Shown here: positions 6,795 through 61,966 of the stretch, piece by piece
Layout: the number at the start of each line of letters is the position of its first letter
Numbering within the stretch: position 1 is the first letter of the stretch
Source: Ignavibacteriota bacterium
GTDB taxonomy: Bacteria; Bacteroidota; Ignavibacteria; UBA10030; UBA6906
Length of the DNA: 64,000 nucleotides
Direction of reading: 5' to 3'
Assembly (NCBI GenBank): GCA_963808715.1
Contig: CAWEHG010000034.1
Location: forward strand, 35,909 to 99,908
Program-made: the position numbers and the translations under genes
The notes under the pieces: model-generated
Databases searched by the model: none
The model's input: the letters and a program-made list of their open reading frames with translations, nothing else
Told to the model about the DNA's origin: nothing

Positions 6795-6808
6795 GGTCTC
6801 GTGCCGGC

Positions 6809-19983: not shown

Positions 19984-20421
19984 CGCGCTCGTTCTCGGTC
20001 TTCATGGACGCTCTTCACGCATTGGGGTTGGCCGTTTCCTGACCTCTCCTGCATCATGCCCGAAGAAGCTGCGGCAGATCCCGCTGACGACGAGGTCCAC
20101 GTGCCGCGGGGCGAGAACGAGCGCGCACGACGCATCATCTTCTTGCCCGAAAAGGTTCTGATCAGAATCATCTTGCTTCTTTAGGCGAACTGCCACATAT
20201 TCACACAGGCAGGCCTCCGGCGCTTTCGGACGTGACCGACACGAGGACACCGCAACACTGCGGGACCTGTTGTCGTTTCTCTGAGCGCCCCTTCTGACGT
20301 GCACATCCGTTCAATTGTGTGAATCCGGTCCGCCGTCCGGGCCTTGCACCCTGCGCTATCGTTTCGCCATGTCGGGGCAGAGGCAAACACCCCCCCTTTC
20401 ACCTGATCGATCGCTGTTCGT

Positions 20422-22497: not shown

Positions 22498-22566
22498 TAT
22501 CAGGTGATACTAACCTAAAATGAGTGGTGCCGTACTCAGTCAATCTCGTCATAACTGGAGGTCATC

Positions 22567-24918: not shown

Positions 24919-24928
24919 TTGCTGTCCG

Positions 24929-24966
24929 CCGGGAGGAGGGTGCCCCTCCTCCCCGGACCTTTTCGC
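24929..24966 (+). terminator. Intrinsic terminator: hairpin ccGGGAGGAGGGtgcCCCTCCTCCCcgg followed by a CTTTTC run
   Basis: Seen directly, 11 bp after the stop at 24918. Confidence 0.5.
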
Positions 24967-24970
24967 AAGG

Positions 24971-45762: not shown

Positions 45763-46248
45763 TTGCATTCTCCAGGCGGAGACAAGGCATCACCATGGAC
45801 CAGTTCGTTCGAGACTCCAGGCACTGCGTTCTTCGATCTGCTTCTGGCCTCCCATACTTCGCTGAAGAAGGTGGCCGGACTCGCCGACATGAGCGCCGAA
45901 GAGGTTCTGTGCCTGTTCGTCCTCCATGAGCACCACCCGGAGAACGTCAAGGCGCTGAGCAGGCATCTCGGCGTACGGAGCAGCCGGATGTCCAAGATCC
46001 TGTATTCGCTTGAGGAACGTGGATTCGTCATCCGATCGATCTCCAATGTGGACCATCGTATGGAAGAGGTCACCCTCACTCCCCGCGGGACCGACCGGAT
46101 GGCAAACATGCTGGCGTTCGGTCGGAGCCTCGCTGAGAGCGTCCCGTTCGCGGGGGGGCACGGCCTCTCTGTCGCGTCTCCGCCGCCGGCCGGGAAAGGC
46201 CACTGGACCCATTCCCGCACCCGTTCCCAGGACCAAGAGCATCATTGA
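45763..46248 (+). CDS. MarR family transcriptional regulator
   Basis: A winged-HTH block ENVKALSRHLGVRSSRMSKILYSLEERGFVIR...EVTLTPRG. The start codon is uncertain. Confidence 0.55.
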   Translation: MHSPGGDKASPWTSSFETPGTAFFDLLLASHTSLKKVAGLADMSAEEVLCLFVLHEHHPENVKALSRHLGVRSSRMSKILYSLEERGFVIRSISNVDHRMEEVTLTPRGTDRMANMLAFGRSLAESVPFAGGHGLSVASPPPAGKGHWTHSRTRSQDQEHH

Positions 46249-46261
46249 CCGAGGTCGACCC

Positions 46262-46903
46262 ATGAGCGTTCCATCTGTCATCCCACTCGCCCCCGTCACC
46301 ACCAAGAAGCACCGCGGGATCGCCCGGCGGATCAAGTTCGAATCCGAGCTGGACCTCGCGTTCGGCGAGACCATGGCCGAAAAGGCGTACGGACAGCGAC
46401 TGTTGAGTTGCATCCAATGCGGCACCTGCAGCGCCACCTGCCCGCTGAGCCACTACATGGACTTCACGCCGCGGCGGATCATCGCGATGACCCGCGAGGG
46501 CTTCCGCGACGAGGTGCTGAACAGCCTGACCATCTGGTTGTGCGCCTCCTGCTACTCCTGCACGGTCCAGTGTCCGCGCCAGATCCACATCACCGACGTG
46601 ATGTACACGCTGAAACGGGAGGCAATGGCGCGCGGTGTCCATCCCAAACACCACCCGATCCCCGTGCTCGCACGCGAATTCTTTGAGCAGGTCCGCCATT
46701 ACGGCCGCAACACCGAGAGCCATGTCCTGGTGAGACTGTTCCTGAGAACGAAACCCTGGAAGATGCTGAAGGAGGCCTGGCTCGGGTTCACCCTCTGGCG
46801 CAAGGGGAGACTCTCCCCGTTCCGCGAGAAGATCCACGGCATCGCCAGCTTGCGCGCCATCCTGACCAGCAGCAGCCCGAAGAACGGAGGACGACCTTCA
46901 TGA
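46262..46903 (+). CDS. hdrC: Heterodisulfide reductase subunit C (two 4Fe-4S clusters)
   Basis: CIQCGTCSATCP and CASCYSCTVQCP ferredoxin-like motifs. Position upstream of hdrB. Confidence 0.75.
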   Translation: MSVPSVIPLAPVTTKKHRGIARRIKFESELDLAFGETMAEKAYGQRLLSCIQCGTCSATCPLSHYMDFTPRRIIAMTREGFRDEVLNSLTIWLCASCYSCTVQCPRQIHITDVMYTLKREAMARGVHPKHHPIPVLAREFFEQVRHYGRNTESHVLVRLFLRTKPWKMLKEAWLGFTLWRKGRLSPFREKIHGIASLRAILTSSSPKNGGRPS

Positions 46904-47802
46904 CCTACCTCTATTTTCCCGGATGCTCCCTGCGCAGCACCGGACGCGCGTACGAGGAATCGATGCTGGCGGTCTTCCGCGCGCTCGAGATCCCGCTCGA
47001 AGAGCTGCAGGACTGGAACTGCTGCGGCGCCACCGCCTACTTCTCGACGGACGAACACCAGGCCTTCGCCATCGCCGCCAGGAATCTCGCCATCGGCGAG
47101 ATCCAGGCGAAGGTGAACGGCTCGGGGCCCGTGGACATCATCGCCCCCTGCAGCGCCTGCTTCCTCGTCCTGAGCAAGACCCAGCGGTACCTTGCGCAAT
47201 ACCCCGAGGTGCATGCGTCCGTGACCAACGCCCTCGCGGCCGGCGGACTGGTATACCACGGAAAGGTCCGCGTCCGCCACCCGCTCGACGTGCTCGTCAA
47301 CGACATCGGGCTCAAGAGAATCGCGGCAAGGACCCGTCGCCCTCTGAAGGGCATCCGGGTCGCCAGCTACTACGGGTGCCAGATGACCCGTCCGTTCACC
47401 ACGTTCGACGATCCTTTCTATCCCACGACGATGGACTCGCTTCTCCGCGCCATGGGAGCCGAGCCGGTGGACTGGGCTCTCAAGACCCGATGCTGCGGCG
47501 GCAGCCTCACCGGGACGATCCAGGAGGCCGGGCTCCGCCTGAACAGGGCCCTTCTGAAGGAGATCAGCAAGCACCGCGCCGACATCGCGGTCACCTGCTG
47601 CCCCCTCTGCCAGCATAACCTCGAGTGCTACCAGGGCCGGATCAACCGGGAATACAACGAGGACCTCCACGTGCCGATCGCCTATTTCACCCAGCTCATG
47701 GGACTGGCCCTCGGGATCCCGGACAAGGAGCTGGGGATCCAGAGATTGTTCCACCCGATCCCCCACCCCGCTTCCCGGCGGGAGGAGGCCGCGCATGTCT
47801 GA
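46900..47802 (+). CDS. hdrB: Heterodisulfide reductase subunit B (CCG domains)
   Basis: MTYLYFPGCSL...NCCGA...CxxC, and a second CCG domain (YYGCQ...RCCGG). Confidence 0.8.
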   Translation: MTYLYFPGCSLRSTGRAYEESMLAVFRALEIPLEELQDWNCCGATAYFSTDEHQAFAIAARNLAIGEIQAKVNGSGPVDIIAPCSACFLVLSKTQRYLAQYPEVHASVTNALAAGGLVYHGKVRVRHPLDVLVNDIGLKRIAARTRRPLKGIRVASYYGCQMTRPFTTFDDPFYPTTMDSLLRAMGAEPVDWALKTRCCGGSLTGTIQEAGLRLNRALLKEISKHRADIAVTCCPLCQHNLECYQGRINREYNEDLHVPIAYFTQLMGLALGIPDKELGIQRLFHPIPHPASRREEAAHV

Positions 47803-49810
47803 TCAGAGCACCAACGGCGCCCCCAGGATCGGATTCTACGTCTGCCATTGCGGACACAATATCGCCGGCATCGTCGACGTCCACGCCGTCGCCGAGGCCG
47901 TGGCTCGCCTGCCCCAGGTGGTCGTGTCGCGCGAATACAAATACATGTGTTCGGATCCGGGGCAGGAGCTGATCCAGCAGGACATCCGCGAACACCATCT
48001 CAACCGGATCGTCGTGGCTTCCTGCTCCCCGCTGCTGCACGAACATACGTTCAGGACCGCAACGGAGAACGGCGGGCTCAACGCCTACCACTTCCACATG
48101 GTCAATATCCGCGAGAACGTCTCGTGGGTGCACACCGACCGTGATGCCGCCACGCGCAAGGCGATCGACCTTGCCCGCGCGGCCATTCTGCGGGTCCAGC
48201 ACCACAAACCCCTCCAGAACCGGAAGGTGCGGATCCACCCCGACGTGCTGGTCGTGGGCGGGGGGATCGCGGGCATCCACGCAGCCCTGACCCTCGCCAA
48301 CGCGGGAAAGAAGGTCTATCTCGTCGAGCGCCAGCCGACCATCGGCGGGCACATGGCCATGTTCGACAAGACCTTCCCCACGCTCGATTGCGCGGCCTGC
48401 ATCCTGACGCCGAAGATGTCGCAGGTGAAGAACCACCGGAACATCACCCTCTGGTCGTATTCGGAGGTGTCTGCGCTCGAGGGGTACGTCGGGAACTACC
48501 GTGTCACCGTGCGCCGGAAGCCCCGCTACATCAACGAGGATCTCTGCGTCGGCTGCATGGAGTGCGTTGAGGCCTGCGTCTACAAAGAGGGCCGCACGCC
48601 AGACGAGTTCAACGTCGGCCTTAGCAAGCGGAAACCGATCTACATCCCGTTCCCCCAGGCAACCCCGCAGGTGGTGGTCATCGACCCCGAGACCTGCATC
48701 CAGTTCAAGTCGGGACACTGCAAGCAGACCTGCGTCGAAAAGTGCGACCGCGACGCGGTGGTCCTGGACCAGCAGGAGACCTTCGAGACCGTGGACGTGG
48801 GCACCATCATCCTCGCCACGGGATTCAAGACCTTCGACGCCTCGCAGTTGCCGGTCTACGGGTACGGGAGGTACAAGAACGTCTACACGTCGCTGGAGGT
48901 GGAACGGCTGGTCAACGCCTCCGGGCCGACCGGGGGGGACCTGATCCTCCGCGACGGCTCCAGACCGAAGACGGTGGGGATCATCCACTGCGTCGGGTCA
49001 CGCGACCGGAACACCAACCGGTGGTGCTCCCGCACCTGCTGTATGTATTCATTGAAGCTCGCCCATCTTCTGAAGGAGCATTCGGACGCGGAGGTGTACA
49101 ACTTCTACATCGACATACGGGCTGCGGGCAAGACCTACGAGGAGTTCTACGACAAGCTGCTCGAGGAGAACGTCCATTTCATCCGGGGGCGGGTGGCAGA
49201 GGTGACCGACTGGACGGCGCGGCCGTCGGAGGAGGGGAAACTGATCATCCGCTGCGAAGACACCCTGATCGGCGTTGTGCGCCGGATCCCGGTGGACATG
49301 GTCGTGCTGGCGGTCGGGATGGAGCCCCAGAAGGACGCGCAGGAGGTACGGCGGCTCTTCAACATCTCCTGCTCCACCGAGGGGTTCTTCCTGGAGCGCC
49401 ACCCCAAGCTCGCGCCGGTGGACACCTTCACCGACGGCGTCTTCATCGCGGGAGCATGCCAGGGACCCAAGGACATTCCCGACAGCGTCGCGCAGGCCGG
49501 CGCGGCCGCCGCGCAGGCGATGGCACTCATCGACGCGCGGGAGATCGAGCTGGAACCCAACGCCGCGGTGGTGGACCAGGACGTCTGCGCCGGGTGTCGT
49601 TCATGCCTGAATGTCTGCCCGTACAACGCGATCTCCCGCGACGAGGCCAAACAGAAGGCGTTCATCAACGAGGCGCTGTGCAAGGGATGCGGGACCTGCG
49701 TGGCCACCTGTCCCTCGGGCGCCATCACGCAGAACCTCTTCGAGGATCAGGAGATCTTCAGCGAGATCGAAGGCCTGCTGACCGAACCGCGCCAGACACA
49801 ACCGGCGTAA
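47795..49810 (+). CDS. hdrA: Heterodisulfide reductase subunit A (FAD, multiple Fe-S; electron-bifurcating subunit)
   Basis: VLVVGGGIAGIHAAL FAD motif, several CxxCxxCxxxCP ferredoxin motifs, an N-terminal Cys cluster (YVCHCGHNIAG) and the inserted thioredoxin-reductase-like domain. Confidence 0.85.
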   Translation: MSDQSTNGAPRIGFYVCHCGHNIAGIVDVHAVAEAVARLPQVVVSREYKYMCSDPGQELIQQDIREHHLNRIVVASCSPLLHEHTFRTATENGGLNAYHFHMVNIRENVSWVHTDRDAATRKAIDLARAAILRVQHHKPLQNRKVRIHPDVLVVGGGIAGIHAALTLANAGKKVYLVERQPTIGGHMAMFDKTFPTLDCAACILTPKMSQVKNHRNITLWSYSEVSALEGYVGNYRVTVRRKPRYINEDLCVGCMECVEACVYKEGRTPDEFNVGLSKRKPIYIPFPQATPQVVVIDPETCIQFKSGHCKQTCVEKCDRDAVVLDQQETFETVDVGTIILATGFKTFDASQLPVYGYGRYKNVYTSLEVERLVNASGPTGGDLILRDGSRPKTVGIIHCVGSRDRNTNRWCSRTCCMYSLKLAHLLKEHSDAEVYNFYIDIRAAGKTYEEFYDKLLEENVHFIRGRVAEVTDWTARPSEEGKLIIRCEDTLIGVVRRIPVDMVVLAVGMEPQKDAQEVRRLFNISCSTEGFFLERHPKLAPVDTFTDGVFIAGACQGPKDIPDSVAQAGAAAAQAMALIDAREIELEPNAAVVDQDVCAGCRSCLNVCPYNAISRDEAKQKAFINEALCKGCGTCVATCPSGAITQNLFEDQEIFSEIEGLLTEPRQTQPA

Positions 49811-49838
49811 TCACGGACCGAACTCAGGAAACCGACTC

Positions 49839-50345
49839 ATGACCACCGCAATAACGCCGACGCCGTCGTGGCAGCCGCGGATCGTCGCGTTCTTCTGCAA
49901 CTGGTGCACCTACACGGCGGCCGACCTCGCGGGCGTCTCCCGGCTCACCTACGCGCCGAACGTCCGCATCATCCGGGTGATGTGCTCCGGACGCATGGAC
50001 CCGCAATTCGTGCTCGACGCGTTCGCCCGTGGCGCGGACGGGGTCTTGATCGGAGGATGCCACCCCGGCGACTGCCACTACGTCGAGGGGAACTACAAGG
50101 CGCTCCGCCGCATACGCCTGCTGGAGCGCTTGCTCGACGACATGGGGATCGCCAAGGACCGCTTCCGCCTCGAATGGATCTCGGCGTCGGAGGGAGAGAA
50201 GGTCCGGGTGGTGGTGAACGATATCGTGGCAAAGGTCAGGGCCCTCGGGCCGCTGGACCTGCCCGGGAAATTCCGCGAGTGGGACAGCGAGATGGACGAG
50301 CTCGAACAGGCGGTCAACACCACCGGGGAGGCCCTCCATGCCTGA
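49839..50345 (+). CDS. mvhD: Methyl-viologen-reducing hydrogenase delta subunit (MvhD/FlpD-like, 2Fe-2S)
   Basis: IVAFFCNWCTYTAADLAG...VMCSGR...GCHPGDCHY are conserved MvhD cysteines. Confidence 0.8.
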   Translation: MTTAITPTPSWQPRIVAFFCNWCTYTAADLAGVSRLTYAPNVRIIRVMCSGRMDPQFVLDAFARGADGVLIGGCHPGDCHYVEGNYKALRRIRLLERLLDDMGIAKDRFRLEWISASEGEKVRVVVNDIVAKVRALGPLDLPGKFREWDSEMDELEQAVNTTGEALHA

Positions 50346-51306
50346 CAAGCCGAAAGTCGCTTTCTACTGGTGCGCCTCCTGCGGCGGGTGCGAGGAATCC
50401 GTCGTGGACCTCGCCGAAGGGCTGCTGGAAGTGGCCGCCGCCGTGGACATCGTCCTGTGGCCCGTCGCAATGGACTTCAAACGCGAGGACGTCGAGGCCC
50501 TGCCCGATGGCTCCATCGCTGCCGCCCTGATCAACGGCGCCGTGCGAACCTCCGAACAGGAGGAGATGGCCCGGATGCTCCGCCGCAAGAGCCTCGTGGT
50601 GATCGCCTACGGCTCCTGCGCGCACACCGGCGGCATCCCCGGACTTGCCAACCAGTTCGACCGGGAGGAGATCCTCCGCTACGTGTACGACGAGGCACCG
50701 TCGACGGTGAACCCCGAACACACCCGTCCTGCCCTCTCGTTCGGCATCAACGGCGCTACGGTCAGGCTTCCCGAGTTCCGCCGGATGGTCCGGACGCTGG
50801 ACCAGGTGATCGATGTGGACTACTACCTGCCCGGCTGCCCGCCGACACCCGCACTGCTCAAGGCGGCGGTCCAGGCATTGCTGACCGGCACCCTTCCACC
50901 GAAGGGATCGGTGCTGGCCCCGGACGTTGCGCTGTGCGAAGAGTGCCCCAAGAAGGACAGCAAACCGTCCGACCTCTCCTTCACCGAGTTCCGGCGCCCG
51001 CACACCACGGCCATCGACCCGAACACCTGCTTGCTGGCCCAGGGGATCGTCTGCATGGGACCCGCGACCCGGAGCGGTTGCGGCGCACTGTGCTGCACGG
51101 GCAACATGCCGTGTACCGGCTGTTTCGGGCCGACCTCCCGGGTCAGGGACCAGGGAGCCAAGATGCTCTCGTCCCTCGCCGCAGGGGTGGCGGCGAAGGA
51201 CGAAGAGGGGATCCGGGAGACTCTCACAGGGCTCCCCGATCCGGTCGGGACGTTCTATCGGTACGCATTGCCGGCGTCGATGCTCCGGCGCAAGATCATC
51301 CACTGA
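50338..51306 (+). CDS. mvhG: NiFe hydrogenase small subunit, group 3c (MvhG-like)
   Basis: N-terminal CASCGGCEES proximal-cluster motif. Downstream Cys clusters (CPPTP..., GCGALCCTGNMPCTGC). Confidence 0.75.
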   Translation: MPDKPKVAFYWCASCGGCEESVVDLAEGLLEVAAAVDIVLWPVAMDFKREDVEALPDGSIAAALINGAVRTSEQEEMARMLRRKSLVVIAYGSCAHTGGIPGLANQFDREEILRYVYDEAPSTVNPEHTRPALSFGINGATVRLPEFRRMVRTLDQVIDVDYYLPGCPPTPALLKAAVQALLTGTLPPKGSVLAPDVALCEECPKKDSKPSDLSFTEFRRPHTTAIDPNTCLLAQGIVCMGPATRSGCGALCCTGNMPCTGCFGPTSRVRDQGAKMLSSLAAGVAAKDEEGIRETLTGLPDPVGTFYRYALPASMLRRKIIH

Positions 51307-51411
51307 GAACCCGCTGCCCGCCGGCGCGGGCCCGGAGAACGGAACCAGGACATGGACAGACACATCACCGAACGCTGGGATCAAGCCCACGCCGCAGCCA
51401 ACACGGCGTAC

Positions 51412-52905
51412 ATGAACACCCGCAGGATCGCCATCGACCCGATCACCCGCCTCGAAGGGCACGGGAAGATCGACATCCTCCTCGACGAGCGGGGCGAGGT
51501 GTCAAAGGCCTACTACCAGATCCCGGAGCTCCGCGGGTTCGAGGTGTTCACCCGCGGCCGGCCCGCGGAGGAAATGCCCCAGATCACCAGCCGGATCTGC
51601 GGCGTCTGTCCCACCGCCCACCATATGGCGGCGACCAAGGCCCTCGACGACCTGTACAAGGTGGTCCCGCCCCGTCCGGCACTCAAGATCCGCGAGCTCA
51701 TCTACAATACATTCATGCTGGAGGACCACGCGCTCCACGTGTACGTGCTGGGGGGACCGGATTTCATTGTCGGTCCGACCGCACCCAAGTCGGAGCGAAA
51801 CGTGCTCGGGGTCATCAACAAGGTCGGCATCGAGACCGGCAAACGGGTCATCGCCATGCGGCGGCGGCTGAGGGACTTCATCACGCAGGTGGGTGGCAAG
51901 GTCATCCACCCGGTCTTCGGACTCCCCGGAGGGGTGGCCAAAGGGATCTCCCCGGACCAGGTCGCCCCGCTCCGCGAACTCGCCGCCGACGGCGTGGAGT
52001 TCGCACGGTTCACGCTCGAGGTCTTCCGTTCCCTGGTGCTGTCGAACGACGAGTACCTGCGCCTGATCACGGGCGGCATCTACACACACCGCACCTCCTA
52101 CATGGGGCTGGTGGACGACCAGCAACGGGTGAACTTCTACGATGGACGCCTCCGGGTGGTGGACCCCGGGGGGGAACAGTTCGCGCTCTTCCCGGCCCAG
52201 GAGTATCTGCAGCACATCGCGGAGCACGTGGAACCCTGGAGCTACGTGAAGTTCTGCTATCTTCGCAAGACCGGCTGGAACGGCTTTGTCGAAGGGAAAG
52301 AGGGGGGCGTGTACGCCGTAGCGCCGCTCGCGCGGTTGAACGCGGCGAAGGGCATGGCCACGCCGCTGGCGCAGGCGGCCTACGAAGAATACGTGAAGAC
52401 CCTCGGCGGGACCCCGGTGCACCACACGCTGGCGAACCACTGGGCCCGCATCGTCGAGATGCTGCAGGCTGCCGAGACCATACAGATCCTCGCCAACGAT
52501 CCGGAGATCACGTCGCACGATCTCCGGGTCCTGCCGACGGCCACCCCCACCTCGGGGATCGGCGTGGTCGAGGCGCCGCGCGGGACGCTGCTGCACCACT
52601 ACGAGACCGACGACCGCGGGATCATCACGCGGGCGAACCTCATCGTGGCGACGCAGAACAATGCCGCCCGGATCGCCATGAGCGTCGAGAAGGCGGCGCG
52701 GGAACTGATCCACGATGGGAAGGCGGACGACGGGCTGCTGAACATGATCGAGATGGCCTTCCGGGCGTACGATCCCTGTAACGCCTGCGCCACCCACACG
52801 CTTCCCGGCCAGGTGCCGCTGGTGATCCGGCTCTTCGACAGCGATCATACGCAGGTCGGCGAGCTGCGCCGGACCCCACCCGGGTCCGCACGGGGTCCCG
52901 CATGA
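51412..52905 (+). CDS. mvhA: NiFe hydrogenase large subunit, group 3c (MvhA-like)
   Basis: N-terminal RICGVCP and C-terminal DPCNACATH NiFe ligand motifs, then a cleavable C-terminal extension. Confidence 0.8.
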   Translation: MNTRRIAIDPITRLEGHGKIDILLDERGEVSKAYYQIPELRGFEVFTRGRPAEEMPQITSRICGVCPTAHHMAATKALDDLYKVVPPRPALKIRELIYNTFMLEDHALHVYVLGGPDFIVGPTAPKSERNVLGVINKVGIETGKRVIAMRRRLRDFITQVGGKVIHPVFGLPGGVAKGISPDQVAPLRELAADGVEFARFTLEVFRSLVLSNDEYLRLITGGIYTHRTSYMGLVDDQQRVNFYDGRLRVVDPGGEQFALFPAQEYLQHIAEHVEPWSYVKFCYLRKTGWNGFVEGKEGGVYAVAPLARLNAAKGMATPLAQAAYEEYVKTLGGTPVHHTLANHWARIVEMLQAAETIQILANDPEITSHDLRVLPTATPTSGIGVVEAPRGTLLHHYETDDRGIITRANLIVATQNNAARIAMSVEKAARELIHDGKADDGLLNMIEMAFRAYDPCNACATHTLPGQVPLVIRLFDSDHTQVGELRRTPPGSARGPA

Positions 52906-53390
52906 AGGGAGAGCCACGCACGCTCCTGCTTGCGCTTGGCAACGACCTGCTGGGCGACGATGCCGTGGGTCTGGAAGCCGCGCGGGAGATCGCGCGGTCT
53001 TCCCCTGACGGCGTGGAGATCGTCGAGGCTGCCGCGGGAGGGTTCGCCCTGCTGGACCTGCTGGAAGGATACCGCGAAGCGGTCATTGTGGATGCGGTGG
53101 CCACCGGAACGTTCCCGCCCGGCACGGTCCGCGAGGTGCTCCCGGAGGAATTCGCCACTCTGGCCCCCGCCTCGCCCCACTACGCCGGACTCCCGCACCT
53201 GATGCAGTTGGCCGCACAGCTCGGCATGACCGTACCTGACCGGTTGCGGATCATCGTGATGGAAGTGGAGGATCCCCATCTCCTCCACGAAGGGTTGAGC
53301 GAGACGGCACGCGCCGCACTTCCCGCCCTCGTGCTTCGCCTTCGCGCTGCCCTCACGGAGATGGCCCCGGCCCAACGCACTCCGGCCTGA
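52902..53390 (+). CDS. Hydrogenase maturation endopeptidase (HycI/FrhD/HyaD family)
   Basis: LLLALGNDLLGDDAVG...VDAV are protease family motifs. ATGA overlap with mvhA. Confidence 0.7.
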   Translation: MKGEPRTLLLALGNDLLGDDAVGLEAAREIARSSPDGVEIVEAAAGGFALLDLLEGYREAVIVDAVATGTFPPGTVREVLPEEFATLAPASPHYAGLPHLMQLAAQLGMTVPDRLRIIVMEVEDPHLLHEGLSETARAALPALVLRLRAALTEMAPAQRTPA

Positions 53391-53415: not shown

Positions 53416-54021
53416 TCACCAGCCCGCGCCGATCGTCTCCTCGAACGTTGCGTACGCCGCCATCCGCCCGTACTGCCCGAAGGAGAACATCGCGACCTGC
53501 TCTGGCTCCTCCGGCAAGCCCTCCGGAAGCGGATGGGGAGCCTCCAGATGATAGAGGTGGCTCTTGACCAGAAAGTCGACCTGGGCGGTCACATACCGGG
53601 GATCCCGCCCGGCGGCCTTGGCGTCCGCGGAAACGGAAAGGATCCTCACGCCGGTCCTGGAGAATTCGGCGGACGCTTTGAACACCAGCGCGCCGGTCCA
53701 GCTGCGGGCGAAGTAGAGCTGACCGTCGAACAGGAAGATATCCCACTTCTCTTCCATCTCGCCGGCGAGGTACACCGGGCCGTCGATCACCCCCTTGAGG
53801 GGAGGATACTCCAGGCCGCACGGAACCAGAAGGGTATTGACGGGCAGTCGGCTGCGGACGTGTTCCCCCTGCGAACTTCGGAGCATCGCAAAAGTATTTG
53901 CCACCGACGGTTCGCCGGTGGAGCTCACCAGTTGACGGGCGAACTCCCTGCAGTCGAGGCAGCGGATGCCGAAGCGGTTTTCGGCGGGGGCGAGCCAGCG
54001 CGGAGGAGCGGTGTGCTTCAT
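53416..54021 (-). CDS. Hypothetical protein (201 aa)
   Basis: An ORF with coding-like composition between the two hydrogenase loci. No recognised motif. Start chosen at MKHTAPP. Confidence 0.4.
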   Translation of the reverse strand: MKHTAPPRWLAPAENRFGIRCLDCREFARQLVSSTGEPSVANTFAMLRSSQGEHVRSRLPVNTLLVPCGLEYPPLKGVIDGPVYLAGEMEEKWDIFLFDGQLYFARSWTGALVFKASAEFSRTGVRILSVSADAKAAGRDPRYVTAQVDFLVKSHLYHLEAPHPLPEGLPEEPEQVAMFSFGQYGRMAAYATFEETIGAGW

Positions 54022-54114
54022 GGACGGTTCTTCACGCAGGGAACATACTAAACCTCCCCGAAAGAAAACAGGCCCCCGTTTGCAACTCCGGCACCTCCCT
54101 CCTATATTTCTTGC

Positions 54115-54942
54115 ATGAATCCAGCGGACACACCGGCGAAACGTACCGTTCTGGTGACCGGTGCAACGGACGGCATCGGCAGGGAAACGGCCCTGGCGCT
54201 CGCCGGGCGCGGCATGCGGGTTCTCGTGCACGGCCGGGATCGCCGGCGCACGGAGAACACCTGCGATGATCTCCGTGCCAGGGTCCCCGGAACGCAGCCC
54301 GAACCGCTGGTGGCGGACCTCTCCTCGCTGGCCACCGTGCGGTCACTGGCGGCCGAGGTCCGCTCCCGCACGGACCGGCTGGACGTGCTCATCCACAATG
54401 CCGGTGTGTTCATGAAACGCCGGCAGTTGTCGGGAGACGGCTACGAAATGACCTTCGCCGTCAACCATCTTGCGCCGTTCCTCCTGACGGCCCTCCTCGG
54501 CGACCTGCTCGCCGCCTCGGCGCCGGCCCGGGTGGTGACCGTCAGCTCCGTCGCCCACCAGCGCGGGAAACTGGACTTTGACAACCTTCAATCGGAGCGG
54601 TCGTTCGACGGCTACGGGGCCTATTCCGCTTCCAAGCTTGCCAACGTGCTGTTCGCCTTTGAGCTCGCCGCGAGGAAGCGTCTGGAGGGCATCACCAGCA
54701 ACGCGCTGCATCCCGGCGTGGTGACGACCAAGCTGCTGCACGAGGGGTTCGGGAGCACCGGGATCAGCCCGGCTGACGGGGCACGGAACTCGGTCTACCT
54801 CGCGACGTCCCCCGAGGTGGAAGGGATCAGCGGGATGTACTTCGACAATTGCCGTCCGGGCCGCGTCGCGCCGGCCGCGGAACAGGCGGACCTGCGCGAA
54901 CGGCTCTGGATCGTCAGCGAAGAGCTTACGGGGCTCTCATGA
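54115..54942 (+). CDS. SDR family oxidoreductase (retinol dehydrogenase/WWOX-like clade)
   Basis: VLVTGATDGIGRE, NAG, and YSASK catalytic motif. Confidence 0.75.
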   Translation: MNPADTPAKRTVLVTGATDGIGRETALALAGRGMRVLVHGRDRRRTENTCDDLRARVPGTQPEPLVADLSSLATVRSLAAEVRSRTDRLDVLIHNAGVFMKRRQLSGDGYEMTFAVNHLAPFLLTALLGDLLAASAPARVVTVSSVAHQRGKLDFDNLQSERSFDGYGAYSASKLANVLFAFELAARKRLEGITSNALHPGVVTTKLLHEGFGSTGISPADGARNSVYLATSPEVEGISGMYFDNCRPGRVAPAAEQADLRERLWIVSEELTGLS

Positions 54943-54990: not shown

Positions 54991-55398
54991 ATGGCGCTCG
55001 CTCAGCACACCGAAGGGTTCATCGGATTCCGCTGGGGGACGCCTCTGCAGGAGATCCGCCAGAAACTGGAGCTGACCCCGGTCCGGGAGGAAGGCCGGTA
55101 CGCTCTGTACGAGCTCGGGGATCTGCCGTTCGAGGGGATCGACCTCCGTGGCTGCGGCCTGGAATTCGTGGACGGAAGGTTGTCCGGGGGATTCTGCCAG
55201 ACCAGGGGAGTGGAAGATGCCCGCCTCCTGAGGCTCCGCCTGGAGCACCAGCTCGGCAGGCCTCTGAGCGTCAGGCAATACACGGCGCAGTGGGCCGGCC
55301 CCGACACCTTTGCGGACTATGACGAGGACGCAACCGGGAACGCCTATCTGTACATCTATTCCCGGAGACTGAACAAACCCGTGGAGCCGGAGCACTGA
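54991..55398 (+). CDS. Small hypothetical protein. A likely signal peptide is encoded just upstream in another frame, so there may be a frameshift near 54955.
   Basis: ORF MALAQHTEGF.... Upstream, ...RWTALLAWPCMALAQ looks like a signal peptide, and MNRILR at 54940 in a third frame suggests a shifted true start. Confidence 0.35.
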   Translation: MALAQHTEGFIGFRWGTPLQEIRQKLELTPVREEGRYALYELGDLPFEGIDLRGCGLEFVDGRLSGGFCQTRGVEDARLLRLRLEHQLGRPLSVRQYTAQWAGPDTFADYDEDATGNAYLYIYSRRLNKPVEPEH

Positions 55399-55401
55399 CC
55401 G

Positions 55402-55761
55402 ATGCACGAACTCTCGATCGCCCAGAGCATCCTCGAGATCGTCTTCGACCACGTGCCTGCGCCACAGCGCCCGCTGGTCCGGACCGTGCGCGTCCGGGTG
55501 GGCGCCGCCTCCGGTGTCGTACCGGAATCTCTCGAGTTCTGTTTTTCCGCGGTGGTCGTGGAAGGCCCCCTGGCGTCGGCCACGATCGAGATCGAGTCGG
55601 TTCCGTTCGTTCTGCGTTGCGGAGCCTGCGGAGCAGAGACCTCCGCCGAGAGCGGCATCCCGATCTGTGCGAACTGCGGGGCACCCGCAGAGATCCTTTC
55701 CGGCACCGAACTCCAGGTGAAGGAGATCGAGCTCGCCGAACCATCCACGGGAGCATCATGA
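55402..55761 (+). CDS. hypA: Hydrogenase nickel-incorporation / maturation factor HypA
   Basis: MHELSIAQSILE start; CGACG...CANCG zinc motifs. Confidence 0.8.
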   Translation: MHELSIAQSILEIVFDHVPAPQRPLVRTVRVRVGAASGVVPESLEFCFSAVVVEGPLASATIEIESVPFVLRCGACGAETSAESGIPICANCGAPAEILSGTELQVKEIELAEPSTGAS

Positions 55762-56411
55762 ACGTCATTACCATCGAACGCAGGGTCCTGGAAAAGAACG
55801 ACGAGATCGCCGCACGGAACCGGGAGAAGCTCCGGAAGCACGGGATCTTCACGATCAACATGGTCAGTTCCCCCGGTGCCGGCAAGACCAGCATTCTCGA
55901 GCGGTCGCTGGACATTCTGAAGAGGGACGTTCGCGTCGCGGTGATCGAGGGAGACGTCCAGACCGACCTCGATGCGCAACGGGTGGCGCGGTACGGAGTG
56001 CCGGCGGTGCAGATCGTCACCCGCGGCGGCTGCCATCTGGAAGCCAACCTCGTGAGCGACGCGCTCGGGACGCTCGACCTGGCGACAACGGACCTGCTCA
56101 TCATCGAGAACGTCGGGAACCTGGTCTGCCCTTCGAACTACGACCTGGGAGAGGACCTCAAAGTCGTGGTGGCGAGCACGGCAGAGGGTGACGACAAGCC
56201 GCTCAAATATCCGGCGATGTTTCGCAAGGCCGACGTCCTGATCATCAACAAGATCGACCTCGTTCCGTACGTCAACTCCAACCTCGTCATCCTGCGTGGC
56301 AACGCCCTGCAGGTCAACCCCTCTCTGACGGTCTTCGAAACCTCCTGCACCACGGGAGCAGGCATCGAGCAATGGTGCGCGTGGCTCGTTTCAAAAACGA
56401 CGCCACACTGA
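55758..56411 (+). CDS. hypB: Hydrogenase nickel-incorporation GTPase HypB
   Basis: SSPGAGKTS P-loop, ENVGNLVCP and NKIDL motifs. Confidence 0.85.
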   Translation: MNVITIERRVLEKNDEIAARNREKLRKHGIFTINMVSSPGAGKTSILERSLDILKRDVRVAVIEGDVQTDLDAQRVARYGVPAVQIVTRGGCHLEANLVSDALGTLDLATTDLLIIENVGNLVCPSNYDLGEDLKVVVASTAEGDDKPLKYPAMFRKADVLIINKIDLVPYVNSNLVILRGNALQVNPSLTVFETSCTTGAGIEQWCAWLVSKTTPH

Positions 56412-56614: not shown

Positions 56615-57139
56615 ATGACCATGCCAACACCAGAAAAGAAACCGACCCACCCGAGCGGCGACAACAGATTCAAGCTGCTCGACCGCGCCATCACGAAACA
56701 CCAGGGACGCGGCGATGCGCTGATCGAGGTCCTGCACGCCGCGCAGGGGATCTTCGGATTCCTCGAGAACGACCTGCTCGTCTACGTCGCGCGGAAACTG
56801 AAGCTTCCCCTCAGCCGCGTCTACGGGGTCGCGACATTCTATCACTTCTTCACCCTGAAACCGAAGGGGGAACACACCTTCGTCCTCTGCACGGGAACCG
56901 CCTGCTATGTCAAGGGGGCGGGCGAGATCCAGAAGGCTGTGGAGTGTCACTGCGGGACGAAGTTCGGCACGACGACCGCTGACAATGCGGTGTCGCTGGT
57001 CTCCGCCCGCTGTGTCGGATCGTGCGGCCTCGCGCCGGTCGCGGTCCTGGACAACGAGGTCGCCGGCAAGCTGACCCCGGACGGGGCGGTCGCAAAGGTC
57101 AAGGCCTGGCAGGTGCAACCACGAGCGGAGGCAGTATGA
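56615..57139 (+). CDS. hoxE: Bidirectional NiFe hydrogenase diaphorase subunit HoxE (NuoE-like 2Fe-2S)
   Basis: Thioredoxin-like 2Fe-2S motifs [10 protein letters not shown]...CVGSCGLAP. Confidence 0.75.
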
Positions 57140-58770
57140 CACTCGAAGATCTCCAGGAGCTCGCCGACAAAGAACGCGATCGCCAGCGGCAATTCAAGTG
57201 TCGGCTGCTGTACTGTTCCGCCGCCGGGTGCGTCTCCTGCGGCAGCAAGACCATCAGCGAAGCCCTGACCGCCGCGATCAAGGAGCGCGGCCTCGGGAAC
57301 GAGGTGGAGGCCGTCGGGACCGGATGCATGGGGCTCTGCGGTGAAGGGCCGCTGGTGAAGGTCGAACCGGACGGCACCCTCTACCAGCACGTCGACGCGG
57401 AGGCCGCCCGCCGGATCGTGGAAGAGCATGTGGCGGGCGGCACGAAAGTGGCGGAATACCTCGTGGACACCACCACCCCCTTCTTCGCCTCGCAACTGAA
57501 GGTGGTGCTGGAGAACTGTGGCCGGACGAATTCTGAGAGCGTCGAAGAGTACATCGCCGCCGACGGGTACTCCGCCCTCGGCAAAGTGCTCACCGAAATG
57601 CAGCCCCAGGAGGTCATCGAGGAGGTCCGCAAGAGCGGGCTGCGGGGCCGGGGAGGCGGAGGCTATTCCACCGGACTGAAATGGGGCATCGTCCGCAAGG
57701 CGGCAAGCGAACAGAAGTACGTCATCTGCAACGCGGACGAAGGGGATCCGGGCGCGTTCATGGACCGGAGCGTGCTGGAAGGCGATCCGCACCGCATCCT
57801 GGAGGGAATGACCATCGCCGGCTACGCGGTGGGCGCCAGCCAGGGGTTCATCTACGTCCGCGCCGAGTACCCGCTCGCCATCGAGCGGCTCCGCATGGCG
57901 ATCAAGCAGGCCGAACGCCTCGGGTTGCTCGGGAACCGGATCCTGGAATCGGCCTACAACTTCCGCATCGACATCCGGATCGGTGCCGGGGCGTTCGTCT
58001 GCGGCGAGGAGACCGCGCTGATACGCTCCATCGAAGGACGCCGGGGCCGTCCCCGCCCGCGTCCGCCGTACCCCTCCGAACGCGGCCTCTGGGGCATGCC
58101 CACACTGATCAACAACGTGGAAACCTACGCCAACATCGCGCCGATCCTCCGGAACGGCAGCGGCTGGTTCGCCCGCATCGGGACCCCGAAGAGCACCGGG
58201 ACCAAGGTCTTCGCGCTCGCGGGGAAGATCCGGAACACCGGCCTGATCGAGGTGCCGATGGGGATCCCGCTCCGGCGCATCATCTTCGACATCGGCGGCG
58301 GCACGCCGGAGGGAACCACCTTCAAAGCCGCGCAGACCGGCGGTCCGTCGGGCGGGTGTATCCCCCCCGAGTACCTGGACCTGCCCGTCGACTACGAATC
58401 CCTGCAGACGGTCGGCTCCATGATGGGGAGCGGCGGGCTCATCGTCATCGATTCCACCTCCAAGATGGTGGACATGGCGAAGTACTTCATGGACTTCTGC
58501 GTCGACGAATCCTGCGGCAAGTGCATCCCCTGCAGGGTCGGCACGGTCCACATCCACAAACTCCTGCAGAAGATCGCCGACGGGAAGGCCACACGCAACG
58601 ACCTCGCCCTGCTGGAGGAGCTGTGCGCGATGGTGAAGGACACGAGCCTCTGCGGGCTCGGACAGTCCGCCCCCAATCCGGTCCTCTCGACCCTGCGCTT
58701 CTTCCGGAATGAGTACGAGGAACTGCTGCGGGAACCGATCACGTTCGTCCAGACACCCAGCGGAACATAG
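57136..58770 (+). CDS. hoxF: Bidirectional NiFe hydrogenase diaphorase subunit HoxF (NuoF-like, NAD(P)H/FMN/4Fe-4S)
   Basis: [13 protein letters not shown] (FMN/NADH), [12 protein letters not shown] (4Fe-4S) and an N-terminal 2Fe-2S domain. Confidence 0.8.
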
Positions 58771-58773
58771 ACC

Positions 58774-59505
58774 ATGTCAGTCATCACGTTCACGATCAAC
58801 GACGAACAGCTGAGCGCCCGGGAAGGCGAAACCATCCTCGACGTGGCACGGGAGCACGGGATCGCGATCCCCACGCTCTGCCACCTGGAGGGCCTCTCCG
58901 CCGTCGGCGCCTGCCGCCTCTGCCTCGTGGAGATCGCGGGGATGTCGAAACTGCTCCCCGCCTGTACCACCCATCCGCAGGAAGGGATGGTGGTGCGCAC
59001 GGACACCGAGCGCCTGAAGCGCAACCGGCGGATCATCATCGAGCTGCTCGCCTCCGAAGGGAATCACCAGTGCGCGGTCTGCGTGGTCAACAACCACTGC
59101 GAACTCCAGAACCTCGCCTACGACGTCGGCCTCCTGTACGTCCGCTTCCCGTATCTGTACCCGGCCAAACGGCTCGACGCGACCCACGAGGACTTCATCA
59201 TCGACCGGAATCGCTGCGTCCTCTGCACCCGCTGCGTGCGCGTGTGCCACGATGTGGAGGGAGCGCACGTCTGGGACATCGCCGGACGGGGCATCGATTG
59301 CGAGATCGTGGCGGACATGAACCAGCCCTGGGGCACGTCGGAGAACTGCACCTCCTGCGGCAAGTGCGTGCTGGTCTGTCCGACCGGCGCCCTGATCAAG
59401 AAGGGGGAAGCGGTGGCGGAGATGGAGAAGCAGCCGAACTTCCTGAAGTTCCTGGTCACCGCCCGGCAGAAACGCGAATGGATCAACGTGGATACGGAGG
59501 AATGA
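58774..59505 (+). CDS. hoxU: Bidirectional NiFe hydrogenase diaphorase subunit HoxU (NuoG N-terminal-like)
   Basis: 2Fe-2S CxxC...C, then CxxCxxC ferredoxin motifs ([23 protein letters not shown]). Confidence 0.8.
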
Positions 59506-59509
59506 GGGC

Positions 59510-60047
59510 ATGAAACCAAGGGTCGCAACGGTCTGGCTGGGAGGATGCTCGGGATGCCACATGTCGTTCCTGGACATGGACGAGCGGTTGATCGAGCTGG
59601 CGGACAAGATGGACCTGGTCTACTCCCCCATCGCCGACGTCAAGGAGTTCCCCGCGAACGTGGACGTCACGCTCGTGGAAGGGGCGGTCGCCAGCGTGGA
59701 GCACGAGGAGTTCGCCCTGCAGATCCGGAGGAACTCCCGGTATGTCGTCTCGTTCGGCGACTGCGCCACCACGGGGAATGTCACCGCCATGCGGAATCAC
59801 ATGCCCCTCCAGCAGGTCCTGGAACGGTCGTACGTGGCGCTGGCGGACCATCACGCCGCAGGTTCCCCGCGACCATCAGTCGATCGCGGAACTGATGCCC
59901 CAGGCCCGGCCGCTTCACGAGTACGTCACGGTCGACGCCTTCATCCACGGATGCCCCCCCACCGCGGACCAGATCTGGTTCGCCGTGAACGAGCTGCTGC
60001 AGGGCAAGATGCCCGCGTATTCACACGTGTACCTCCGGTACGGATAA
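59510..60047 (+). CDS. hoxY: NiFe hydrogenase small subunit, group 3d (HoxY), with an apparent frameshift near 59845-59865
   Basis: [16 protein letters not shown]-terminus. The C-terminal HGCPP motif appears in the second frame (ORF 59742..60047). Confidence 0.7.
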
Positions 60048-60092
60048 CCGCCGGAACGGGAAGCAGAGGAAGGAACCACGAAGAGCCAGCGC

Positions 60093-61520
60093 ATGTCCAG
60101 AACCATCAGTATCGCCCCGGTGACCCGGATCGAGGGTCACGCCAAGATCACGATCCTCATCGACGACGCCGGCAGCGTGCAGGACGCACGGTTCCACGTC
60201 AACGAGTTCCGCGGCTTCGAGAAGTTCTGCGAGGGACGGGTCGTCTGGGAAATGGCAGGCATCACCTCCCGCATCTGCGGCATCTGCCCGACGAGCCACC
60301 TGATCACCTCCGCGAAGGCCGGCGACGACATCCTGGCCGTCGAGATCCCCGTTGCCGCCGACCGGCTGCGCAGGCTCATCACCCTCGCGCAGTGGCTCCA
60401 GTCCCACGCGCTGAGCTTCTTCCACCTCTCATCACCCGATTTTCTCCTCGGGTTCGACGCAGATCCGGCCAGGCGCAACATCTTCGGTCTGATCGCCGAC
60501 CACCGCGAGTTCGCGCGGCGGGGGATCCGACTGCGGAAGTTCGGGCAGGAGATCATCGAGGTACTGGGCAGCCGCCGCATCCATACCCCCTGGGCGGTTG
60601 CAGGCGGGGTACGAGAGCCGTTCGAGGTCGGGAAACGCGACTACCTGCTCGGCTGGATCCCCGAGGCAAAAGAGACCGCGCTGCTGGCCCTCGCCGAACT
60701 GAAGAAGATCCACGTCCGGCTGGCCGGCGACCTGCCGAACTACGGGAACTTCCACTCCCTGTTCATGGGTCTCGTGGCACCCGATGGCGCCCTCGAGTAC
60801 TACGACGGATCCATCAGGATCATGGACGCCACGGGGAACATCATCGCGGACCGGATCGACCCCAGGACCTACCATGAGCACTTCGGAGAGGCTTCGGAAC
60901 AGTGGTCGTACCTCAAGTTCCCCTACTACAAACCCTTCGGATACCCCCGCGGCATGTACCGGGTCGGCCCCCTTGCACGGGTCAACATCTGCGACTATAT
61001 TGACACTCCCCTGGCGGAGACCGAACGCCGGCTGTTCAAGGCGTTCGCGGGCGAGACGGGGGCCGTCAACAATTCGTTCTTCTACCACTACGCGCGCCTG
61101 ATCGAGATGCTGTTCGCGGTGGAGAAGATCGAGATGCTTCTGCACGATCCGGTCCTGCTCGGCACCAACGTGCGGTCCAAGGCGATGATCAACCGCGAGC
61201 AGGGGATCGGCGCCTCCGAAGCGCCCCGGGGCACCCTGTTCCATGAATACCACGTCACCGAGGACGGAATGCTGACGGCGGTCAACCTGGTGATCGCAAC
61301 CGCCCAGAACAACCTGGCGATGAACCGCACGGTGCGGCAGCTCGCCACCCACTACCTGGACGGCGTCGTCCCGACGGAAGGGCTCCTGAACAGGATCGAG
61401 GCCGGGATCCGGTGCTACGACCCGTGCCTCTCCTGCTCGACTCACGCGATCGGCCAGATGCCTCTGCACCTGGAGGTCGTGGATCCCGCGGGACGCCTTC
61501 TCGCCGAACTCCGTCGATGA
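60093..61520 (+). CDS. hoxH: NiFe hydrogenase large subunit, group 3d (HoxH)
   Basis: RICGICP and DPCLSCSTH NiFe-binding motifs. Confidence 0.85.
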
Positions 61521-61966
61521 ACGCCGTCCTCGTCATCGGCTACGGCAACACCCTCCGGGGCGATGACGGCGCCGGGGTGATCGCGGCCGGCCGGGCTCGC
61601 GATCTGGTGAAGGGAGTGGACGTGGTGACAGCGCATCAACTGCAACCGGAGCATGCCGAGGCCGTGGCCGGTCACCGGTGCGTGCTGTTCGTGGACGCGA
61701 GTGTACGCCGCCACACCCTGGGAGTCACCGAGATCGGCCCGAGGGAGCAGTCGCCACACGGCTCGACCCACAACCTGTCACCCGCAGGACTCCTGGCGCT
61801 GGCACAGGAGGTCTACCGCGAAACTCCCGAACGAACCCTCCTGCTCGAGATCCCGGCGTTGTCGATGGAGTTCGGGGACGGGCTGACGCCGGAAGCGTCG
61901 GCCTGCGTCGAAGAGGTCCTCGTCCATATCCGGAACGAAGTGGAGCTCTTTCTCGATCGAGTCTGA
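61517..61966 (+). CDS. hoxW: Hydrogenase maturation protease HoxW
   Basis: VLVIGYGNTLRGDDGAG family motif. ATGA overlap with hoxH. Confidence 0.75.
   Translation: MNAVLVIGYGNTLRGDDGAGVIAAGRARDLVKGVDVVTAHQLQPEHAEAVAGHRCVLFVDASVRRHTLGVTEIGPREQSPHGSTHNLSPAGLLALAQEVYRETPERTLLLEIPALSMEFGDGLTPEASACVEEVLVHIRNEVELFLDRV

Follow-up and report, generated by a model that had tools for sequence, protein, structure and literature searches.

A heterodisulfide-reductase-linked [NiFe] hydrogenase operon of an Ignavibacteriota bacterium as a member of a widespread bacterial gene cluster

The hdr-mvh operon

We analyzed a stretch of 64,000 nucleotides (hereafter the window) from an Ignavibacteriota bacterium (contig CAWEHG010000034.1 of assembly GCA_963808715.1), in which eight consecutive plus-strand genes lie within positions 45763-53390: a marR-like gene, hdrC, hdrB, hdrA, mvhD, mvhG, mvhA and an endopeptidase gene. 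We read them as one operon for a soluble, bacterial-type heterodisulfide-reductase-linked [NiFe] hydrogenase, which most likely works by the mechanism of the methanogen enzymes with a different terminal substrate, and we give this reading (operon and mechanism together) a probability of about 0.72. Among bacteria this operon is ordinary: it belongs to a widespread and already reported type of gene cluster, and hundreds of non-methanogenic species, relatives of this bacterium included, carry the same gene order. The genes, in window positions, are:

45763-46248, plus strand: gene for a MarR-like winged-helix regulator (TTG start; Pfam MarR 40.3 bits, E=2.8e-10, residues 44-99)
46262-46903, plus strand: hdrC, ferredoxin-like subunit (NCBIfam best match CoB_CoM_SS_C 85.5 bits, E=3e-24, cutoff 160)
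46900-47802, plus strand: hdrB (two Pfam CCG domains, E=3e-25)
47795-49810, plus strand: hdrA, flavoprotein of bifurcating type with flavin adenine dinucleotide (FAD) and six [4Fe-4S] clusters (PDB 8rvu_a, E=7e-218)
49839-50345, plus strand: mvhD, [2Fe-2S] adaptor from hydrogenase to HdrA (Pfam FlpD, E=2e-54)
50338-51306, plus strand: mvhG, long hydrogenase small subunit (PDB 5odc_E over its full length, E=2e-63; NCBIfam VhuG 212 bits)
51352-52905, plus strand: mvhA, [NiFe] hydrogenase large subunit (NCBIfam VhuA 383 bits, E=2e-114; next family 162)
52902-53390, plus strand: hydrogenase maturation endopeptidase of the HycI/HybD family (TIGR00072 92.4 bits, cutoff 47.45; Pfam HycI)

Pfam, NCBIfam and PDB searches agree with the first-pass annotation, which had named six Hdr/Mvh subunits, a protease and a preceding MarR gene, and the matches to Hdr and Mvh families are far above chance level. 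The genes are as tightly packed as described there, with junctions, read from the sequence, of +13 (marR-like/hdrC), -4 (hdrC/hdrB, ATGA), -8 (hdrB/hdrA), +28 (hdrA/mvhD), -8 (mvhD/mvhG), +45 (mvhG/mvhA) and -4 bp (mvhA/protease, ATGA); what had been called several ATGA overlaps are exactly two, accompanied by two 8-bp overlaps. The genes of the operon, those for MvhA and the endopeptidase among them, are translationally coupled, and an orthologue of the protease follows mvhA in most related loci. All seven hdr, mvh and protease genes are free of internal stops and frameshifts when compared with their orthologues, and the G+C content at third codon positions (GC3) of the operon's open reading frames (ORFs) is 0.74-0.88, like that of the rest of the 65% G+C window. 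The start of hdrC was picked by agreement with the N-termini at two related loci, L002 (on a 442-kb contig from the Joint Genome Institute, JGI) and L032 (in the Ignavibacteriae metagenome-assembled genome (MAG) fen_1259).

The position of the marR-like gene suggests that its product may regulate the operon. A homologue (48% identical) is found at the equivalent position in L032, and none in L002. The winged helix-turn-helix matches Pfam, and the C-terminal 40 residues are of low complexity and do not resemble canonical MarR, with the homologue from L032, the only one found, atypical as well. A run of seven G (46154-46160) precedes the odd C-terminal tail and may mark a further frameshift. Promoter, terminator and inverted-repeat scans of the intergenic region between glnD and the marR-like gene gave no signal above shuffled expectation and no convincing operator.

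Cofactor ligands and comparison with the methanogen complex

For each subunit, orthologues were taken from 83 related loci and aligned (51-84 orthologues per subunit). Every expected cluster-ligand Cys is present in the window proteins, at 98-100% conservation among the orthologues. HdrC (79 bits to PDB 8rvu_c, E=3e-21) has two CxxCxxCxxxCP motifs for [4Fe-4S] clusters, CIQCGTCSATCP and CASCYSCTVQCP, and all eight Cys are 98-100% conserved (n=51). HdrB (146 bits in the PDB search) aligns end to end with 8rvu_b and 5odc_B and keeps all ten CCG-motif Cys (C9, C41, C42, C84, C87, C160, C198, C199, C234 and C237; 98-100% conserved, n=58).

HdrA has full-length PDB matches (8rvu_a 728 bits, 5odc_A 698 bits), and its domains are an N-terminal cluster domain, an inserted ferredoxin domain and another ferredoxin domain at the C terminus, with the FAD motif GGGIAG at residue 155. 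The Cys ligands that are 99-100% conserved (n=67) include four N-terminal ones, C199 and C202, and C399, C411, C415 and C416; the conserved Cys also cover the inserted ferredoxin domain and two C-terminal CxxCxxCxxxC motifs. E370 and K421 (kept in 67/67 and 66/67 orthologues, respectively) correspond in the alignment to E356 and K409 of the Methanothermococcus thermolithotrophicus protein; this pair is given as the marker for telling bifurcating HdrA from the non-bifurcating kind (PMC9430772, citing Appel et al. 2021).

On the hydrogenase side, MvhD (184 bits to PDB 5odc_D, E=3e-53) has all five Cys at 99-100% conservation (n=72), in MvhG the Cys sets of three Fe-S clusters are retained (thirteen Cys 100% conserved, n=79), and the two CxxC pairs of MvhA are conserved (n=84). 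MvhA ends in DPCNACATH followed by a 35-residue extension, where DPCxxCxxH is the expected protease cleavage site.

The features of an electron-bifurcating HdrABC are found in all three Hdr subunits: HdrA carries the FAD site, the E/K pair, the ferredoxin domains and the N-terminal cluster, with the spacing of one motif altered, and HdrB and HdrC carry two complete CCG motifs and two CxxCxxCxxxCP motifs, respectively. Degenerate FAD or Fe-S motifs in HdrA would have spoken against the H2-linked, flavin-based bifurcation proposed in the first-pass annotation; they are intact, and with the cofactor-binding residues that it needs in place, such bifurcation is supported.

Like the methanogen MvhAGD-HdrABC complexes (M. 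thermolithotrophicus 5ODC; Methanothermobacter 8RVU/9SW2), the window has six subunits with full-length alignments, and the two share the ligand Cys (both CCG motifs, three-cluster MvhG, [2Fe-2S] MvhD), the HdrA domain set including the inserted ferredoxin domain, the E/K pair and the MvhA L1/L2 motifs. The window proteins are nevertheless distant (HdrB about 33% and MvhA 38-41% identical), the genes lie in one operon in the order hdrCBA-mvhDGA, and the host is no methanogen. At its N-terminus MvhA is extended by about 22 residues, as are orthologues from several bacterial phyla. The second motif of the inserted HdrA ferredoxin domain is C-x7-C-x3-C-x3-C instead of the methanogen CxxCxxCxxxC, a spacing that is invariant across the bacterial clade. 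Further differences, in HdrB, concern the substrate pocket.

The HdrB pocket and the terminal acceptor

In the HdrB of M. thermolithotrophicus, coenzyme B (CoB) is contacted through its carboxylate by Arg201 and through its phosphonate by Arg14 and Arg240, and the sulfonate of coenzyme M (CoM) contacts the backbone of Gly46 and Gly198 (2026 structure-activity paper, PMC13261682). In a phmmer alignment to 5odc_B, the window equivalents of the three arginines are Thr14, Thr204 and Cys243, and those of the two glycines are Ala46 and Gly201, with a two-residue deletion past the second CCG motif. None of 58 bacterial HdrB orthologues (0/58) has Arg at any of the three CoB-binding columns, while CCGAT and GSLTGT are nearly invariant in the same set. 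The replaced arginines and the scores against the CoB-CoM heterodisulfide reductase models (HdrB 168 bits against a cutoff of 345, HdrC 86 against 160) depart from what is expected of an enzyme with that specificity, and together they argue that the substrate is not CoM-S-S-CoB. On this sequence evidence, the operon should not be listed under the name CoB-CoM heterodisulfide reductase. The non-methanogenic acceptor suggested in the first-pass annotation gains support from the loss of these arginines, in the window and in the orthologues alike.

The mechanism we propose follows the methanogen one. The 35-residue tail of MvhA would be removed by the co-encoded protease, and H2 would be split at the Ni-Fe site of MvhA. 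Electrons would then travel by way of MvhG, with its three clusters, and the [2Fe-2S] cluster of MvhD to the FAD of HdrA, where they would be bifurcated: the uphill branch would run through the HdrA ferredoxin domains to ferredoxin, and the other through HdrC to the non-cubane clusters of HdrB, with reduction of a disulfide or persulfide. The terminal compound is probably not CoM-S-S-CoB; it is likely a disulfide, persulfide or polysulfide on a small thiol or a protein. What the sequences show is gene content, cofactor ligands, flavin residues of the bifurcating type, conservation and synteny; complex formation, bifurcation, direction and acceptor are our inference, and the complex may run in either direction.

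Assignment to group 3c

The large subunits of group 3c hydrogenases, which HydDB names heterodisulfide reductase-linked, have the motifs ICGxCxxxH (L1) and AYDPCxxCATH (L2) (Poudel et al., PMC6085437). Window MvhA fits both (RICGVCPTAH and AYDPCNACATH), as do the 84 aligned clade members, and the L2 of the window HoxH (see below) differs. The small subunit is of the three-cluster MvhG type: it matches 5odc_E with 218 bits over residues 6-316, whereas the small subunits of group 3d (7t2r_E 81 bits, 5xf9_C 65 bits) and of group 3b match its N-terminal part only (the N-terminal half for 3d). It is accompanied by the MvhD [2Fe-2S] subunit, and hdrCBA lies immediately 5' in the coupled operon.

A neighbor-joining tree was built with three methanogen Mvh/Vhu chains, four group 3d references, and two 3b-like sequences and Escherichia coli HyaB (group 1d) as outgroups. 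Bootstrap values are 100% for the bacterial Hdr-linked clade, 94% for the methanogen Mvh/Vhu clade and 92% for the 3d clade. As judged from these sequences, the bacterial Hdr-linked hydrogenases of more than ten phyla form one tight clade, separate from methanogen Mvh and from 3d. The best PDB match was dropped as a classifier because the top match is a 3d-like enzyme (Acetomicrobium 7t2r_D 365 bits, ahead of 354 for MvhA 5odc_F) and because the window HoxH scores as high against 5odc_F (354 bits) as the window MvhA does. Motifs, small-subunit architecture, MvhD and linkage to hdr genes place MvhA in group 3c, and the neighbor-joining phylogeny leaves the position of the clade unsettled; the earlier 3c label thus stands on motifs, architecture and gene context, and not on the tree.

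Three further systems were compared. In the HdrA2B2C2 of Methanosarcina (PMC5296606), MvhD is fused in HdrA2; window HdrA matches the HdrA2 model with 852 bits at positions 1-643 (below the 1100-bit cutoff) and MvhD with 186 bits at positions 639-774, but HdrA and MvhD are separate genes here, and the input is a [NiFe] hydrogenase instead of F420H2/ferredoxin. The group 3d Hox enzymes (Hydrogenophilus 5XF9; Acetomicrobium NiFe-HydABCSL 7T2R) have large subunits about as near to window MvhA as methanogen MvhA is. The window operon differs from them in having no HoxEFU/NuoEFG-type diaphorase genes, a long three-cluster small subunit and the L2 motif AYDPCxxCATH, and a genuine 3d enzyme encoded 3 kb downstream of it falls in a different clade. 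The third comparison is with other bacterial modules built on HdrABC and MvhD, FlxABCD-HdrABC of Desulfovibrio and HdrCBA-MvhD-MetVF of Moorella and Sporomusa, which likewise have this core outside methanogenesis and whose acceptors differ from CoM/CoB or have not been identified. These modules take electrons from NADH or give them to methylene-tetrahydrofolate and lack MvhAG, and the HdrA of Sporomusa and Moorella has no inserted ferredoxin domain, unlike the window HdrA.

Distribution and synteny

At least 8000 relatives of MvhA were found at E<=1e-30, the best 120 of which are 69-96% identical to it. A scan with one genome per GTDB species gave at least 591 confirmed relatives; the best 80 of these are 65-74% identical and carry labels of Bacteroidota, Ignavibacteria/Ignavibacteriae, Chlorobi/Chlorobiota, Verrucomicrobiota, Acidobacteriota/Terriglobia, Gemmatimonadota, Armatimonadota/Fimbriimonas, Bipolaricaulota, Elusimicrobiota, Sumerlaeota, Krumholzibacteriia, Chloroflexota, Planctomycetia and Methylacidiphilum. 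Window MvhA itself gave no exact hit in the assembly collection; the closest among the matches listed is 96% identical (on a 2-kb JGI contig), and the closest among GTDB species representatives 74%.

Gene order was counted in the 66 loci with enough upstream sequence: hdrCBA-mvhDGA is contiguous in 47/66, hdrA-mvhDGA occurs without a separate HdrB in 13/66, all six genes are present in another order in 4/66, and the arrangement is otherwise different in 2/66. L002 repeats the layout of the window (divergent glnD, hdrCBA, mvhDGA, protease, small ORF, hypAB, hoxEFUYH, hoxW, hypF), and so does L032 up to hoxF, at which point the fetched stretch stops. The hdr-mvh-hyp-hox supercluster is thus conserved, whole in L002 and up to hoxF in L032.

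Clusters of this kind have been described before. The genome paper of Caldithrix abyssi (2017) reports a group 3c hydrogenase with hdr genes upstream, seen also in other bacteria, with functions "yet unknown" (PMC5317091). MvhADG/HdrABC is annotated in an Ignavibacteriae MAG paper (2020; PMC7509429) and in a Sumerlaeota paper (2021), which remarks that CoM biosynthesis is absent (PMC8092238); hdr-mvh clusters of marine Gemmatimonadota are described likewise in a published genome paper. According to Poudel et al., 26% of the complete genomes that encode Mvh are bacterial (PMC6085437). The first-pass annotation had implied that the operon is rare, which does not hold, with at least 591 species representatives over many phyla and with published cases from FCB (Fibrobacteres-Chlorobi-Bacteroidetes) group and other bacteria. 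The reported clusters (Caldithrix abyssi Cabys_1916-1914, Ignavibacteriae Ch128a, Sumerlaeota, marine Gemmatimonadota) are alike in kind, come from FCB phyla or their sisters and raise the same acceptor question; species-representative loci of these phyla show 65-74% MvhA identity and the gene order of the window. The window differs from them by the marR-like gene in front (shared with L032 only) and by a short-chain dehydrogenase (SDR) gene and a minus-strand ORF ahead of hypA.

Several observations on these loci are added here. The MvhA orthologues L004-L083 are 65-74% identical between Bacteroidota, Verrucomicrobiota, Acidobacteriota, Chloroflexota and Bipolaricaulota, on branches that are very short and poorly resolved; such identity across distant phyla, together with the short branches, suggests repeated horizontal transfer of the whole operon. 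A variant without separate hdrC and hdrB is seen in L022 (1390-8506), L004, L015, L018, L024, L035, L037, L040, L045, L048, L063, L066 and L075. In L022, the genes upstream of hdrA-mvhDGA are etfB, etfA, a gene for a membrane-anchored NarI-like+Fer4+CCG protein (674 aa) and one for a fused Fer4+CCG protein (412 aa), which suggests an Etf- and membrane-linked version of the Hdr-hydrogenase complex. In L001 (88-4452, on a 5.6-Mb contig), a paralogous second hydrogenase lies just upstream of hdrCBA-mvhDGA; its large subunit is 52% identical to window MvhA and sister to the whole bacterial clade, and next come the genes for a short flavoprotein resembling HdrA (442 aa) and for a Fer4 protein of 387 aa.

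Weighing the alternatives

A number of points weigh against reading the operon as a bifurcating, Hdr-linked group 3c hydrogenase with a thiol-type acceptor. The branching order of the three clades is not fixed by the neighbor-joining tree (methanogen and 3d enzymes group at 60% bootstrap), and MvhA is no nearer to methanogen MvhA/VhuA (38-41% identity) than to 3d enzymes (36-41%). In NCBIfam, no score of an Hdr or Mvh subunit reaches the curated equivalog cutoff (HdrA2 852/1100, HdrB 168/345, HdrC 86/160, VhuA 383/800, VhuG 212/450), so the window subunits are not equivalogs of the methanogen enzymes. Pfam searches of essentially all large ORFs of the 64-kb window found no DsrC/TusA, Qmo/Flx, CoM/CoB or lipoate-protein genes, and all-against-all ORF clustering over the 83 loci found no candidate acceptor gene recurring near the operon: the only recurring genes are hypA-F, proteases, and Hox and 3b-type hydrogenase genes, with etfAB in a variant. 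In the literature searched, this bacterial clade is represented by genome-based annotations only, and no biochemically characterized member was found. Finally, hypF is frameshifted in this assembly.

A first alternative keeps the enzyme and reverses it: the physiological direction would be H2 evolution (confurcation), in which reduced ferredoxin and a thiol or mid-potential donor are co-oxidized, so that the complex serves as a fermentative redox valve beside Hox. Re-oxidation of fermentation reductant has been proposed for the 3c/Hdr complex of Ignavibacteriae Ch128a (PMC7509429), the neighboring Hox belongs to group 3d, whose members, according to HydDB, interconvert H2 and NAD by cellular redox state, and Pfam searches found no uptake-type membrane hydrogenase or autotrophy genes in the 64 kb. 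Direction, however, is not readable from sequence, the only characterized homologues run in the H2-oxidizing direction, and the gene evidence spans 64 kb of the genome. We regard evolution as the main direction as unlikely, though deserving of consideration.

In a second alternative, the HdrBC-like module would hand the high-potential electron to something other than a disulfide, in the way of other CCG-domain proteins; a quinone or an organic substrate would be examples. HdrB scores 157 bits against SdhE (the CCG-domain membrane anchor of methylmenaquinol:fumarate reductase), close to its 168 bits against HdrB, and the CoB-binding arginines are gone. In acetogens, HdrABC-MvhD modules take part in non-heterodisulfide reactions (MetFV complex). 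Thirteen related loci have a fused Fer4+CCG protein in place of HdrB and HdrC, and in L022, the one examined, it adjoins EtfAB and a membrane-bound HdrD-like protein. However, both five-Cys CCG motifs, which build the disulfide-cleaving non-cubane clusters, are strictly conserved, and the operon includes no metFV, quinone-binding subunit or membrane-anchor gene; no membrane-anchoring domain is found among the Pfam and NCBIfam matches of HdrB and HdrC, although transmembrane helices were not predicted directly. We consider this alternative improbable.

Least probable is that the cluster is a decaying or silent remnant with no active [NiFe] hydrogenase, hypF and hoxY each being broken by a +1 frameshift, because the housekeeping gene glnD is frameshifted too (in a C6 run) and a patatin-Omp85 gene is apparently split, which points to assembly indels, and because all 7/7 hdr, mvh and protease genes are full length with their functional residues intact and a GC3 typical of coding sequence of this genome.

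The frameshifts are located as follows. L002 HoxY aligns in frame 2 to 59848 (residues 1-96) and in frame 3 from 59850 (residues 97-161), placing the hoxY frameshift near 59849; L002 HypF aligns in frame 2 over 61979-63043 (residues 1-358) and in frame 3 over 63039-63992 (residues 357-675), placing that of hypF near 63040. The glnD frameshift, relative to orthologues, is near 45315, and in the patatin-Omp85 gene (about 19000-19176) two overlapping ORFs share the patatin profile between them, one matching positions 1-118 and the other 148-190 (by Pfam alone). Three confirmed frameshifts plus an apparent fourth within 64 kb, among them one that lies at a homopolymer of a housekeeping gene, are probably due to assembly indels and not to decay.

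Maturation of any [NiFe] hydrogenase depends on HypF. A genuine hypF frameshift would prevent it altogether, for the two hydrogenases of the window alike. The set had been called complete in the first-pass annotation, which is right for the six subunits and the protease, all unbroken, and has to be qualified for the dependence on hypF.

Genomic neighborhood

The supercluster continues downstream of the operon with maturation genes and a second hydrogenase:

55402-55761, plus strand: hypA, nickel insertion/maturation (Pfam HypA, E=1.5e-28)
55758-56411, plus strand: hypB, nickel insertion/maturation (tblastn with L002 HypB, 71% identity from 55755)
56618-61966, plus strand: hoxE-F-U-Y-H-W, second, NAD-linked hydrogenase of group 3d (Pfam for HoxE/F/U/H)
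61517-61966, plus strand: HoxW-like protease (no Pfam family)
61979-63998, plus strand: hypF carbamoyltransferase (Pfam HypF_C domains; frameshift near 63040; extends past the window end)

The two hydrogenases of the window share hypA and hypB. The HoxH sequence has 58% identity with that of Acaryochloris and 43% with that of Cupriavidus necator, and it falls in the 3d clade of the neighbor-joining tree. Given the supercluster with hyp genes and an NAD-linked Hox, the Hdr-linked complex probably balances the H2, ferredoxin and thiol pools.

Between the protease gene and hypA, a plus-strand ORF of 135 aa (54991-55398) has counterparts of 33-34% identity at the equivalent position in L002 and L003 (149 aa) and may encode an unrecognized hydrogenase accessory protein. 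Ahead of it lie two insertions that the syntenic loci lack, namely a minus-strand ORF of about 200 aa (53416-54021) and the SDR gene (54115-54942); the only sigma-70-like promoter match of the region (54079-54108) is upstream of the SDR gene. Pfam assigned no family to the 135-aa ORF, the minus-strand ORF or the HoxW-like ORF.

The first-pass annotation had placed the operon in an FCB bacterium with a type IX secretion system (T9SS). This is right, because the homologues of the adjacent GlnD that bear an organism name come without exception from Bacteroidota or Ignavibacteria, and because the window encodes T9SS markers, namely a Por_Secre_tail protein (22555-24918) and a PorV-like protein (29055-30146). 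A relative of GlnD with 96% identity was found as well. The G+C content is 58-60% over 20001-31000 and about 65% elsewhere. This block encodes two large Pfam-less proteins, the T9SS-tailed protein, a TonB-dependent receptor, the PorV-like protein and a protein with NHL repeats, and it may have been acquired horizontally as an island of surface-protein genes. At the start of the window (2-8380, minus strand) is a cluster for a molybdoenzyme of the xanthine-dehydrogenase family, with the FAD/[2Fe-2S] subunit at 6809-8380 and the molybdopterin-binding domains on separate ORFs (2-1522 and 4472-5224) that flank a gene for a pyridoxal-phosphate-dependent enzyme; this separation may reflect a genuine gene arrangement or an assembly artefact.

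Implications

Why hundreds of non-methanogenic species need a bifurcating H2:ferredoxin/"heterodisulfide" enzyme is a known open question, and the clade-wide loss of the CoB-binding arginines sharpens this question without answering it. Some carriers are apparently cultured, e.g. Limisphaera sp. VF-2 (L073), whose record has no MAG label, and Caldithrix abyssi, which is described as cultivated (PMC5317091), and the question is therefore accessible to experiment. As a tentative suggestion, which we hold with low confidence, the clade, with its remodelled HdrB pocket, might reduce a common cellular acceptor other than a classical heterodisulfide, such as a persulfide or trisulfide on a protein, or a compound that is not a thiol. 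If this were true, the clade would stand apart as a functional class of its own among bifurcating hydrogenases, with the operon in the window as one member.

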